Shown: piece by piece, positions 13,405 to 16,471 of the stretch
Layout: every line of letters begins with the position of its first letter
How positions within the stretch are numbered: position 1 is the first letter of the stretch
Origin: a virus
Lineage: Duplodnaviria; Heunggongvirae; Uroviricota; Caudoviricetes
DNA length: 30,004 bases
IMG/VR virus record: IMGVR_UViG_2872198387_000003
Strand: one strand, 5' to 3'
The notes under the pieces: model-generated
What the model saw: only the letters and a program-made list of their open reading frames with translations
What the model was told of the DNA's origin: nothing
Database searches by the model: none
Made by a program: the position numbers and the translations under genes

Positions 13405-13607
13405 CTAGGTCTCCTTATAAACATCAGCCATCACATTGACCAGCCTATCAACCTCGACCTCTTTAGCATAACGGTCGTACGTAATAGACCCTGAACTATG
13501 CCCCATGATCGCCTGTGCATACGCCAACTCGACCCCATGTTGTTTTAACTGGGTCGCAACTGTATGTCTAAACGAGTGAAACGCTATGTAAGTATCCCGC
13601 ATAATCG
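13405..13607 (-). pseudogene. tyrosine integrase, C-terminal fragment
   Basis: ...YIAFHSFRHTVATQLKQHGVELAYAQAIMGHSSGSITYDRYAKEVE... carries the HxxR, GH and catalytic Y motifs. The upstream boundary depends on the unresolved IS end and could reach about 13645. Confidence 0.8.
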
Positions 13608-13665
13608 TGCCATTCACATTTAGAGATCCTCCGGCATACTCAATCTGCCAATTAAGGAGATCGCT

Positions 13666-13932
13666 ATGCGTAAAGCCCGTTTTACTGAGCATCAGATCAT
13701 CGCCGTGATTAAGTCGGTTGAAGCCGGACGAACTGTTAAAGATGTCTGCCGGGAGGCCGGTATCTCTGAAGCCACCTACTACAACTGGAAGTCCAGATAC
13801 GGTGGCATGGAGGCTTCTGATATTAAAAAGATTAAAGAGCTTGAGGACGAGAACCGCCGTCTCAAACAGATGTTTGCCGACCTGAGCCTGGAGAACCGGG
13901 CGCTGAAGGACGTTATCGAAAAAAAGCTTTAA
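13666..13932 (+). CDS. IS3-family OrfA (HTH + leucine zipper)
   Basis: 88 aa MRKARFTEHQIIAVIKSVEAGRTVKDVCREAGISEATYYNWKSRYGG... Confidence 0.85.
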   Translation: MRKARFTEHQIIAVIKSVEAGRTVKDVCREAGISEATYYNWKSRYGGMEASDIKKIKELEDENRRLKQMFADLSLENRALKDVIEKKL

Positions 13933-14777
13933 AACCAGCCTGTAAGCGTGAGCTGGTCACTCATCTGATAACGACATTCGGACTCAGTATCCGTCAGGCC
14001 TGCCGGAGTCTGAACCTGAGCAGAACGGTTTACCATTACCGCCCGGATACCACGCGTGATGAACCCGTTATTGTCGCGTTGCAGGCAGTGGCAGAGCGAT
14101 ACCCACGATACGGTTTTCCGAAACTCTTCCAGGTTCTGCGGCGACAGGGATACCCATGGAATCACAAAAGGATCCACCGTATTTACTGTCTGCTGAAGCT
14201 GAATTTTCGCCGTAAGGGCAAACAACGGTTGCCGGTGCGTAATCCCTCGCCACTGGCCACGTCGGAAGCGCTGAACCAGAGTTGGTCTGTCGATTTTATG
14301 CATGATGCCCTGGTCTGTGGCCGTCGTTTTCGTACGTTCAATGTCGTTGATGACTTTAACCGTGAGGCGTTGTCGATTGAAATCGACCTGAATCTGCCAG
14401 CTCTACGCGTGGTCCGTGTACTCGACAGGATCGCGGCAAACCGTGGCTATCCGGTCAAGCTGCGCATGGATAATGGTCCGGAATTTATCTCCCTGACACT
14501 GGCTGAATGGGCAGAGAAACATGCAGTAAAACTGGAGTTTATCCAGCCGGGTAAGCCGACGCAGAACGCTTTCATTGAGCGCTTTAACCGGACATACCGT
14601 ACAGAAATACTCGATTTTTATCTGTTCAGAACGCTGAATGAAGTGCGGGAAATCACGGAAAAATGGTTGTCAGAATATAACTGTGAACGCCCGCATGAAT
14701 CACTGAACAATATGACGCCAGAGGAATATCGACAACACCATTATTTGGCCGGGATCTCAAAAAATGCCTGGAACTAA
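13926..14777 (+). CDS. IS3-family OrfB (DDE), expressed as an OrfAB fusion by -1 frameshift
   Basis: The frame is open from about 13917: ...KPACKRELVTHLITTFGLSIRQACRSL...WSVDFMHD...RMDNGPEF...NAFIERFN.... The first ATG in this frame is at 14079. Confidence 0.8.
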   Translation, partial: ALKPACKRELVTHLITTFGLSIRQACRSLNLSRTVYHYRPDTTRDEPVIVALQAVAERYPRYGFPKLFQVLRRQGYPWNHKRIHRIYCLLKLNFRRKGKQRLPVRNPSPLATSEALNQSWSVDFMHDALVCGRRFRTFNVVDDFNREALSIEIDLNLPALRVVRVLDRIAANRGYPVKLRMDNGPEFISLTLAEWAEKHAVKLEFIQPGKPTQNAFIERFNRTYRTEILDFYLFRTLNEVREITEKWLSEYNCERPHESLNNMTPEEYRQHHYLAGISKNAWN

Positions 14778-14827
14778 AACGGGTCTATTTACAGCTAAGC
14801 CGCTACGGTCTACGAGGACTTTAGGCA

Positions 14828-15035
14828 ACAACGTCCGATTAAACCATTTACTCACCTGCTCACCGTAACCGTTCTTCATGAGACGCAGACCATCGAACAC
14901 CATAGCGTCATCACCGTCAGCGCCTCTACGGGTCTCTACAAGCGCCATAAAGTCAGCCAATATAAAACCATAGGCCCCATCGACCAGAGGCACACAGCGG
15001 TCACTATGAGCGTTCTTGATGCTCTTACCGGGTAG
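14828..15035 (-). pseudogene. tyrosine integrase, middle fragment
   Basis: LPGKSIKNAHSDRCVPLVDGAYGFILADFMALVE...VSKWFNRTLL(PKVLVDRSG). This is the typical ...R.VPL segment after the catalytic Arg. It is cut by IS911 at 15036. Confidence 0.7.
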
Positions 15036-15107
15036 TGAAGTGGCACACTGAATTTGGCCACCTGAACAGAGGTGATATGCTCACCTCAGAACAACACAGG
15101 TGCTCCA

Positions 15108-15410
15108 ATGAAAAAAAGAAATTTTAGCGCAGAGTTTAAACGCGAATCCGCTCAACTGGTTGTTGACCAGAAATACACGGTGGCAGATGCCGCCAAAGCT
15201 ATGGATGTTGGCCTTTCCACAATGACAAGATGGGTCAAACAACTGCGTGATGAGCGTCAGGGCAAAACACCAAAAGCCTCCCCCATTACCCCGGAACAAA
15301 TTGAAATCCGTGAGCTCAGGAAAAAGCTACAACGCATTGAAATGGAGAATGAAATATTAAAAAAGGCTACCGCGCTCTTGATGTCAGACTCCCTGAACAG
15401 TTCTCGATAA
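15108..15410 (+). CDS. IS911 OrfA
   Basis: 100 aa [49 protein letters not shown]... recognised as IS911 OrfA. Confidence 0.9.
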
Positions 15411-15436
15411 TCGGGAAACTCAGAGCGCATTATCCT

Positions 15437-16276
15437 GTGGTCACACTCTGCCATGTGTTCGGGGTTCATCGCAGCAGCTACAGATACTGGAAAAACCGTC
15501 CTGAAAAACCAGACGGCAGACGGGCTGTATTACGCAGTCAGGTACTTGAGCTACATGGCATCAGCCACGGTTCGGCCGGAGCAAGAAGCATCGCCACAAT
15601 GGCAACCCGGAGAGGCTACCAGATGGGACGCTGGCTTGCTGGCAGGCTCATGAAAGAGCTGGGGCTGGTCAGCTGTCAGCAGCCGACTCACCGGTATAAA
15701 CGTGGTGGTCATGAACATGTTGCTATCCCTAACTACCTTGAAAGGCAGTTCGCCGTGACCGAGCCAAATCAGGTGTGGTGCGGTGATGTGACCTATATCT
15801 GGACGGGTAAGCGCTGGGCGTACCTCGCCGTTGTTCTCGACCTGTTCGCAAGAAAACCAGTGGGCTGGGCCATGTCGTTCTCGCCGGACAGCAGGCTCAC
15901 CATGAAAGCGCTGGAAATGGCATGGGAAACCCGTGGTAAGCCCGGCGGGGTGATGTTCCACAGCGATCAGGGCAGTCATTATACGAGCAGGCAGTTCCGG
16001 CAGTTATTGTGGCGATACCAGATCAGACAGAGTATGAGCCGGCGCGGAAACTGCTGGGATAACAGCCCAATGGAACGCTTCTTCAGGAGTCTGAAGAACG
16101 AATGGATGCCGGTGGTGGGTTACGTAAGCTTCAGCGAGGCAGCTCACGCCATAACGGACTATATCGTTGGATATTACAGTGCACTAAGACCGCACGAATA
16201 TAACGGTGGGTTACCCCCAAACGAATCGGAAAATCGATACTGGAAAAACTCTAACTCGGTGGCCAGTTTTTGTTGA
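15437..16276 (+). CDS. IS911 OrfB (DDE)
   Basis: 279-aa ORF in the -1 frame: ...WCGDVTYI..., ...HSDQGSHY..., ...DNSPMERFF... Confidence 0.9.
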
Positions 16277-16284
16277 CCACTTCA

Positions 16285-16357
16285 AGTAGTAGACGCCGTT
16301 ACGCTGGTAGAGATAGTAGACTGCTGGAAGTTTGTGACTACTGGATAGCTGAATCAT
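16285..16357 (-). pseudogene. tyrosine integrase, N-terminal 24 codons
   Basis: MIQLSSSHKLPAVYYLYQRNGVYY is an integrase-type N-terminus (...NGVYY(FR)). It starts 115 nt downstream of tRNA-Gly on the same strand and is cut by IS911. Confidence 0.55.
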
Positions 16358-16471
16358 ATGTCTGTATGCCCTGAGAGGGTTACACAGTGGGTTACAGTAA
16401 GTAACTCTGCAAGGAGGCTTAAAGCCGTATCCCTTAGGATTCAGTAGGTTGGAGTACTTTAAGAAAGGTCA

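Follow-up and report, generated by a model that had tools for sequence, protein, structure and literature searches.

A Decayed tRNA-Gly Island Carrying a T7-Type Promoter in an IS-Rich Prophage, and Its Intact Relatives in Enterobacterales

Introduction

Several groups of small integrase-bearing islands, such as PICI, P4, PLE and PICMIs, remain silent until a specific phage infects their host. PICMIs are minimalist satellites of virulent phages, which are packaged as concatemers and are devoid of capsid-remodelling genes (PMC10803314). Here, we analysed a stretch of 30,004 nucleotides (nt) deposited in IMG/VR as IMGVR_UViG_2872198387_000003 and assigned to the Caudoviricetes (hereafter designated as the window), in which the remains of a small tyrosine-integrase island with a perfect T7 promoter lie next to a tRNA-Gly gene. 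These remains were compared with intact relatives identified in Enterobacterales. Unless otherwise mentioned, features are on the minus strand of the window, and the loci used for comparison are designated by L numbers.

With tRNA-targeting tyrosine-integrase islands, of the P4 type and similar, the family shares an integrase gene located directly downstream of a tRNA gene, 23-bp repeats of the tRNA 3' end at both extremities and an integrase of Pfam family PF00589. It differs from them by the unusual length of this integrase (543-545 amino acids (aa)), which has a DUF6538-like N-terminus, and by an island size of only 4-6 kb; in the window, the target is a phage-borne tRNA-Gly(UCC) and not the chromosomal glyU. 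The likeness to PICMIs, PICI, P4 and PLE would reside in a small integrase-bearing island kept silent until a specific phage infects. Yet, neither primase or replicase, nor AlpA, nor packaging genes were recognised in this family, and its putative trigger is a set of promoters for the phage's own RNA polymerase, instead of derepression by a phage protein. No such island was found in the literature on T7 promoters in islands or satellites, on Autographiviridae satellites and on phage-polymerase-triggered defence (most subscription journals being outside this coverage), and the family is apparently undescribed.

Anatomy of the Island Remnant

As to its anatomy and origin, segment 12952-16471 of the window is, with little doubt, the left portion, now inactive, of a small island with a tyrosine integrase. 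This part begins next to tRNA-Gly(UCC) (16472-16546), the last gene of a cluster of four minus-strand tRNA genes, Met/Ile2(CAT), Arg(UCU), Thr(UGU) and Gly(UCC), identified by ARAGORN with the agreement of Rfam. The 3' end of this tRNA-Gly (16472-16494) is the equivalent of the 23-bp att core of the island family. It is followed by an attL-proximal arm (16358-16471) extending up to the integrase start codon, an ATG at 16357. The order of features given in an earlier note on this DNA, from the tRNA through a spacer, an integrase split by two insertion sequences (IS) and the T7 promoter, is correct, except that the spacer measures 114 nt and not 115.

Three pieces of coding sequence map in order onto a single 545-aa integrase of Escherichia coli 21AR0133 (L005). 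The first (16285-16357; MIQLSSSHKLPAVYYLYQRNGVYY) comprises codons 1-24 plus one nt, aligns to the start of this integrase and displays, together with the spacer, 97% nt identity. The second (14794-15035; LPGKSIKNAHSDRCVPL...WFNRTLLPKVL) covers codons 403-483 in 242 nt and is 96.3% identical to L005 9323-9564, while the third (13405-13586) runs over 182 nt from codon 482 to the stop, codons 482-540 being 98.3% identical to L005 9561-9736. The fragments thus belong to one integrase and not to unrelated ones, as had been anticipated in the earlier note, and the intact gene whose search it recommended exists: intact copies occur in complete E. coli genomes beside the chromosomal glyU, between actS and the ETT2/yqeG region. 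The open reading frame (ORF) listed at 13405-13692 begins within an adjacent IS, true integrase sequence being found from 13586. Tyrosine recombinases are characterized by the catalytic residues R...HxxR...H/W...Y. Fragment 3 retains HxxR, H and Y (AFHSFRH...GH...DRY), and fragments 2 and 3, once joined, match PF00589 with E = 1e-10; an intact homologue matches this family at E = 2e-18 and also shows a weak DUF6538 match at its N-terminus. The window gene is nevertheless a pseudogene, since the first catalytic Arg (ARLNE motif) falls within the deleted codons 25-402.

This deletion, which removed about 1132 nt of the integrase (ca. 377 codons), lies beside an IS911 copy (15036-16284, plus strand; ORFs 15072-15410 and 15437-16276) that is 99% identical to an IS911 annotated in an E. 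coli O121 prophage (L002). IS911 elements are about 1250 bp in size, with TGAAGTGG terminal repeats and the orfA/orfB pair, and generate a target duplication of 3-4 bp. The window copy has the ends and ORFs of the family, with the exception of the target duplication: its flanks read ACT and CTA, and they are out of frame, with 73 nt of integrase before the element and a codon first base where the gene resumes. The absence of a target duplication, combined with the loss of 1.13 kb of integrase, supports an IS911-associated deletion, and the insertion is consistent with an adjacent deletion or with recombination between two copies. The adjacent deletion proposed in the earlier note from the missing duplication, the out-of-frame flanks and the lost Arg is upheld, whereas its estimate of about 150 missing codons was too low because the integrase is unusually long.

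The second interruption is an IS3-family element of 1207 bp (13587-14793, plus strand; ORFs 13666-13932 and 14079-14777), which was delimited by its junctions and inverted repeats and is annotated as an IS3 family transposase in matching E. coli records. With inverted repeats starting with TGTAA and a 4-bp target duplication (TAGC at 14797-14794 and 13586-13583), this element is a clean simple insertion and no sequence was lost. Near its orfA/orfB junction, a region (13931-14073) matches the Hfq-binding small RNA (sRNA) isrN of Rfam with 156 bits; here, this match marks an IS and not a free-standing sRNA gene. A second IS911-type disruption was observed in the island family: in E. coli ECMA0423 and Shigella flexneri SFBU1023 (L020 and L021, ca. 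10580-11345 in both), a distant member with a 72% identical integrase has an IS911-like element within a K1F-type promoter (...GACTAAACTATCACTA|TGAAGTGG...).

Beyond the integrase stop, the T7 class III-type promoter TAATACGACTCACTATAGGGAGA (13294-13316) is found after 88 nt. It precedes a conserved block (13126-13293; ...AACCGTAACTTATCGCATCCTTTCAGGGGCGGGATGACC...CTGGGTCAGTCGATAAGTG...) that would be transcribed from it and that is shared with eight relatives (L004, L005, L008, L009, L010, L012, L013 and L025); with z = -1.7, the fold predicted for the RNA that follows the window promoter is unremarkable. Next comes an AT-rich block (12952-13125; 75% A+T) with CTTAAAG-type repeats, recognised by local alignment to T7 origins. 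The island stops at CTCTAAGGGAATAC, where it is cut off by an IS600 copy (11688-12951) defined from its junction sequence and from repeat families. By comparison with E. coli FT130 (L004) and 21AR0133, the remainder of an intact island, namely a leader, a Rha/KilA-N-type cargo and attR, is not in the window. The attR repeat was predicted in the earlier note and does occur in intact relatives, but no second copy of the tRNA-Gly 3' end was detected in the window with up to 3 mismatches, because IS600 removed the right part. The island was ruined in three steps: insertion of IS911 with the 1.13-kb adjacent deletion, clean insertion of the IS3-family element, and an IS600-associated truncation that took away cargo and attR. 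The window copy has lost the ability to move and to express cargo; what survives is the promoter together with the origin-like block.

Nesting in a Prophage-Borne tRNA-Gly

The lambdoid E. coli O121 prophage (L002) provides an uninterrupted version of the insertion site, in which the Q antiterminator gene is followed by the same four-tRNA cluster and then by a holin gene. The window is 98.5% identical to this prophage from 16882 down to 16472, with an identical tRNA-Gly (75/75), and the homology ends exactly at the tRNA CCA. From the following base, the window is the sequence found 3' of the chromosomal glyU in island-bearing E. coli: the whole spacer (16358-16471) is 97% identical to the sequence after glyU in E. 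coli 21AR0133 and LR-64-1, and its first ca. 100 nt are found with 89% identity in 385 E. coli genomes, every time adjoining a tRNA-Gly. These data support an element that entered a lambdoid prophage at the 3' end of its tRNA-Gly gene, in the interval separating the Q region from the holin gene, which agrees with the integration site deduced in the earlier note. Two spacer motifs described there as T7-flavoured, CTTAAAG and CTAAGGGA, did not keep this status, as they are conserved in the family whatever the promoter type; they more likely represent integrase arm or attP sequence.

Searching for the junction revealed an intact relative in the same kind of prophage in E. coli EPSSH018 (L042), following a tRNA-Ile/Lys/Thr/Gly cluster. 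This island, which harbours the integrase, a DUF4145 gene and further small genes, is bounded by both attL and attR. Its attR keeps a prophage-type tRNA end, followed by nearly the same post-tRNA sequence as in L002, GTCAGAGTCTTTCAG being the holin-side sequence expected after attR, and then by the holin gene. The EPSSH018 island, an intact prophage-nested relative, establishes the prophage tRNA-Gly(UCC) as a secondary site open to the family. Between this site and glyU, 13 and 9 shared bases flank a 4-base stretch with three differences, and the EPSSH018 tRNA-Gly (L042 9015-9089) is a hybrid bearing the glyU-type 3' end of the island (...CCCTTCGCCCGCTCCA). The window junction itself was found at high identity in none of the 5426 complete E. 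coli genomes, the EPSSH018 relative with its 88% identity being the only one detected. The family would spread by means of its integrase and also by riding inside other elements, such as the present prophage.

Distribution and Gene Content of Intact Islands

The usual seat of the family is the 3' end of the chromosomal tRNA-Gly gene glyU in Enterobacterales. It adjoins a tRNA-Gly in 385 of the 5426 complete E. coli genomes, and a cross-species scan with one genome per species detected the integrase in 17 further species of Enterobacterales. The scan yielded it in Klebsiella, Pectobacterium, Rouxiella, Enterobacter, Citrobacter, Buttiauxella, Shimwellia, Proteus, Serratia, Edaphovirga, Morganella and S. 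flexneri. About 25 islands from at least 15 genera exhibit the same compact layout closed by att repeats. At either boundary, intact islands have a 23-bp direct repeat, TTCGATTCCCTTCGCCCGCTCCA, derived from the tRNA end, and both attL and attR were found in five relatives (L004, L009, L010, L023 and L042). Their size is 4276 bp in E. coli FT130, 5608 bp in E. coli O103:H2 12009 (including an IS), 6160 bp in Proteus cibi and 6435 bp in K. pneumoniae ATCC 13883.

From the integrase onward, the family layout comprises, often, the anti-T7 defence gene RAZR, an array of phage-polymerase promoters, the AT-rich block, a structured leader and a Rha/KilA-N-type cargo. Apart from the integrase, with or without RAZR, intact relatives hold just 1-4 small genes, and no polymerase, capsid or terminase gene was found in them. 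Besides the integrase, a DUF4145 protein is often encoded. Each island further has one protein of the Rha, KilA-N or Ant-like kind and a conserved protein of ca. 60-76 aa; some members add a DUF6971 protein and a protein of ca. 373 aa without family match, and in FT130 a 105-aa membrane ORF replaces these last two. Among 50,697 phage records, the 373-aa protein has no homologue and the KilA-N cargo protein only weak matches, in Vibrio phages. On an intact island, the tRNA was the sole Rfam match at E <= 1, and scans for sigma-70 promoters and terminators returned no more sites than in shuffles. In E. coli O26:H11 FWSEC0001 (L007), a second integrase-bearing element with a major capsid protein gene (L007 1-8900) was observed directly upstream of the island integrase, which suggests that elements can lie in tandem beside this island.

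RAZR, also designated as PD-T7-4, is a zinc-finger protein with a DUF4145 (HEPN) domain. The DUF4145 protein of many members matches PD-T7-4 of the PADLOC collection over its full length (E = 2e-100), with full-length homologues found directly after the integrase in L007-L010 and in L042; RAZR is absent from the window and from the closest relatives L004 and L005. RAZR acts as an RNase once activated through its assembly around the portal protein of T7 (PMC13017515). Consistent with the present layout, the PD-T7-4 literature notes that this gene often overlaps an integrase gene, but a description of the mobile element, promoter array, origin-like block or downstream cargo is absent from two reports on this system (PMC9519451; PMC13017515).

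Promoters for Phage RNA Polymerases

The window promoter matches the T7 sequence at 23 of 23 positions, and its identity to T7 phi13, phi6.5, phi10 and phiOR extends over 26-27 nt. It points away from the integrase, toward the expected position of the cargo. The closest intact relatives, FT130 and 21AR0133, have a tandem pair instead of the single copy of the window, the integrase stop being directly followed by short repeats and promoters. A perfect T7 promoter is common in laboratory vectors, and one might see here vector contamination or an assembly artefact, or consider promoter-like strings in these islands as chance occurrences or unrelated binding sites. Such an origin is hardly conceivable: the flanks are not vector, none of 100 window shuffles matched, the same promoter and context recur in independent complete E. 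coli genomes (41 of them hold at least 80% of the segment formed by the integrase end, the promoter and the AT-rich block of the window), and in other genera this position is occupied, in the same orientation, by promoters of other natural types.

More generally, the motif ACTATAGRRR was found in 16 of the 19 loci that the cross-species integrase scan yielded, with 1-4 occurrences per locus, always on the cargo strand and within ca. 2.5 kb downstream of the integrase; about 0.2 per locus would be expected by chance on both strands together. Based on their sequences, these promoters can be divided into five types. The T7 consensus occurs in the window, FT130, 21AR0133, O103:H2 12009, E. coli ESY003 and K. 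pneumoniae ATCC 13883. Both ESY003 and ATCC 13883 also possess ATTAGGGCACACTATAGGGAGA, a K30-like promoter found in 173 phage records, including phage K30 (161 from Klebsiella), which we take to be of the K11-like type, and ATTAGGTAGCACTATAGGGAGA, found in 256 records (248 from Klebsiella) of the KP32 group, with 11-12 sites per genome in those listed. The K1F type, ACTAAACTATCACTATAGGGAGAGACC, is present in E. coli O26:H11, Enterobacter, Citrobacter, Buttiauxella and EPSSH018, and matches at 28 of 30 positions sites of K1F-type phages that are annotated as promoters in phages EcoDS1 and CR44b. The last type, ATTAACCCACACTATAGGGAGAC, was identified in P. cibi and is identical (27/27) to sites in Vibrio phages ICP3 and N4, which some ICP3 records annotate as promoters.

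The coexistence of T7, K30-like and KP32 types side by side in ESY003 and ATCC 13883 bears on the view that the T7-like DNA derives from a temperate T7-like phage integrated at tRNA-Gly, of which promoters and origin would be functionless leftovers. In line with this view, which is close to that of the earlier note, an integrase beside a tRNA gene is combined here with perfect T7 promoters and an origin-like sequence, and integrase-bearing T7-like phages are known from other bacteria. Yet, one island with three polymerase specificities is not the leftover of one phage. Moreover, no reading frame of the window matches a T7 protein (tblastn, all frames, E <= 1e-3) and its nucleotide matches to T7 all fall on the promoter, the T7-like content of the island being limited to promoters and the origin-like AT-rich block, and the relatives are islands of 4.3-6.4 kb whose compact, att-closed layout is the same throughout the genera mentioned above. 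As compensatory changes in the leader hairpin (see below) also speak against decay, such a phage origin is very improbable. The multi-specificity array rather reads as a sensor array.

A Structured Leader Upstream of the Cargo

Outside the window, a conserved leader of ca. 110 nt was observed just upstream of the variable cargo gene of the relatives (L004 15298-15406, L007 12195-12302, L008 12366-12476 and homologues). RNAalifold applied to a multi-locus alignment predicts a long hairpin that pairs with the Shine-Dalgarno region. With 35 pairs, 90% of the alignment cells are paired, versus 39-55% in slid controls. Ten pairs have changed on both sides, and the covariation score was reached by none of 500 shuffles; these compensatory changes indicate that the hairpin is under selection. 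The leader is without an Rfam family, and the modelled structure could serve for RNase III-type processing or as a translation lock.

An Origin-Like AT-Rich Block

Replication of T7 starts at phi1.1A/phi1.1B, the primary origin, or at secondary ones, phiOR among them. Every T7 origin has a T7 promoter as its essential element, and purified T7 proteins can initiate DNA synthesis on plasmids that carry the primary origin (PMC8373140). The islands resemble these origins in having tandem T7 promoters followed by an AT-rich block whose best matches are those origin regions. In FT130, the best T7 alignment of this block is 5915-6005, which directly follows phi1.1B and forms the AT-rich portion of the primary origin, with a score of 45.4 bits versus 24.5 ± 2.5 (maximum 35.4) for 300 dinucleotide-preserving shuffles; it is followed by matches to the CTAAAG repeats of the left end and to the stretch behind phiOL. 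In the window, the best local alignments to the T7 genome are 5912-6007 (primary origin), 414-484 (phiOL), 261-340 and 39244-39328 (phiOR), with 36.8 bits versus 24.5 ± 2.6 (maximum 34.0) for 300 dinucleotide shuffles; the score of such matches is significant, their location is not. In contrast to the T7 origins, the block sits in a bacterial island, some 170-300 nt of conserved sequence separate it from the promoter, and the likeness amounts to only ca. 66-72% identity over 70-100 nt.

The pentamers [GT]GGTC and GTGTC, which we take to be the recognition sites of the T7 primase, are 3-5 times commoner than in shuffles in many non-coding regions of the islands. They are partly located in tandem arrays, the unit of which differs between islands, all the differing units containing TGGTC or GGGTC. 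As a pointer to origin function, this enrichment is suggestive only. Variable tandem arrays were observed directly after the integrase and after the AT-rich block (L004 14193-14360; L005 9760-9800 and 10500-10640). The unit GATGACCATAGGC is repeated about 13 times in FT130 and 3 times in 21AR0133, with about one copy in the window, and the unit TAGGGTCTCTC about 10 times in 21AR0133.

A Possible Infection-Triggered Island

These features can be assembled into a scenario for intact islands. The integrase would handle integration, and the promoter array, often located after a constitutive RAZR gene, would be read by no enzyme other than the single-subunit RNA polymerases of virulent T7-like phages. 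The island would thus be silent until an infecting T7-like phage supplies the only polymerase able to read the array. Transcription would then cross the T7-origin mimic, which probably lets the replisome of the phage copy the island, and continue through the leader hairpin hiding the ribosome-binding site toward the Rha/KilA-N-type and other small genes. Expressed and amplified upon infection, the island would most likely interfere with the phage, interference being the most likely pay-off because RAZR rides on the same element. Taken as a whole, we consider this account of the window and its relatives as the probable best explanation, while for the infection-triggered mechanism itself the balance is even. 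We propose somewhat more tentatively that the family forms a widespread class of tRNA-Gly islands using T7, K11/K30, KP32, K1F and ICP3-type promoter arrays as infection sensors and an origin mimic for phage-driven amplification, which would make them the first natural satellites or hijackers of T7-like virulent phages in enterobacteria and the native vehicle of RAZR.

The main rival is a complete satellite cycle, in which intact islands would be true satellites of T7-like virulent phages, induced by the polymerase, replicated through the origin mimic, packaged as concatemers into T7-like capsids and transduced, interference being secondary. Such a cycle fits the small size of the islands (4.3-6.4 kb), which have an integrase and att sites but neither replication nor structural genes. 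It also fits the mimicry of promoter and origin of the presumed helper and the likeness to the CTAAAG arrays that adjoin the terminal repeat of T7; PICMIs offer a precedent for concatemer packaging (PMC10803314). However, nothing similar to the terminal repeat of T7 or to its concatemer junction was found in islands with T7 promoters, only the promoters matching at normal stringency, and the proteins of intact islands included no recognisable small terminase, packaging redirection or excisionase family. Searching IMG/VR with the integrase and the leader returned contigs with identifiers in the style of isolate genomes, and not of viromes, with two distant metagenome matches and no evidence of encapsidation. 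We therefore regard packaging and transduction as unlikely, and retain as the preferred reading an island triggered by infection and directed against the phage.

Several observations weigh against this preferred reading. Promoter use, replication and phenotype are all deduced from sequence. The origin similarity is short and AT-rich, with about half of the shuffles also landing in the same T7 regions, and the enrichment in primase sites is partly due to tandem repeats and related sequences. In the sub-lineage devoid of RAZR, the link to defence depends on uncharacterised products, namely Rha, KilA-N, the 105-aa membrane ORF, DUF6971 and the 373-aa protein. As to the window, integration is deduced from one junction and from relatives because attR is missing. 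Unlike that of EPSSH018, the window tRNA-Gly is not a hybrid and is prophage sequence to the last base, a difference that may reflect either another crossover point or a later conversion of the tRNA end.

If this scenario is true, the promoters and origin of the phage would have been borrowed by bacteria, or by their mobile parasites, as a means of sensing T7-type infection, a trigger logic that we did not find described for any natural island. RAZR would gain a mobile-element context, and new cargo genes would become available to try against T7-like phages, which find wide use in phage therapy directed at Klebsiella and E. coli. A genome-wide search for phage-polymerase promoters outside phage genomes would also be suggested.

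Prophage Surroundings

The window remnant itself is a case of ordinary decay in an IS-rich prophage of Shigella or enteroinvasive E. coli (EIEC) type. Its accurate annotation is a dead island remnant in an IS-ridden Shigella/EIEC-type ipaH prophage, and not a T7-like prophage.

These 30 kb contain a minimum of eight IS copies, IS911 and the IS3-family element included. In addition to the copy that cuts the island off, IS600 is present at 489-1753, 17501-18764 and 28305-29568, three of the four copies (11688-12951 included) being direct and one inverted; two direct copies bracket the island remnant together with the tRNA cluster. Another IS, with ORFs of 136 and 301 aa, occurs in two copies (8021 to ca. 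9350 and 26521 to ca. 27850). The isrK/C4 antisense RNA module was also found twice and in opposite orientations, at 7234-7422 on the plus strand and 18867-19068 on the minus strand, one of them with an a1/b1 target, which suggests either two prophage immunity/antirepressor regions or an inverted duplication. Finally, a match to CssrB ('Shigella sRNA B'; 2631-2813), a gene for an ipaH-type E3 ligase with LRR and NEL domains (2942-4657) and a hok/sok locus (22015-22189) were identified. Together with the IS load, these features point to the remnant of an ipaH prophage of Shigella or EIEC.

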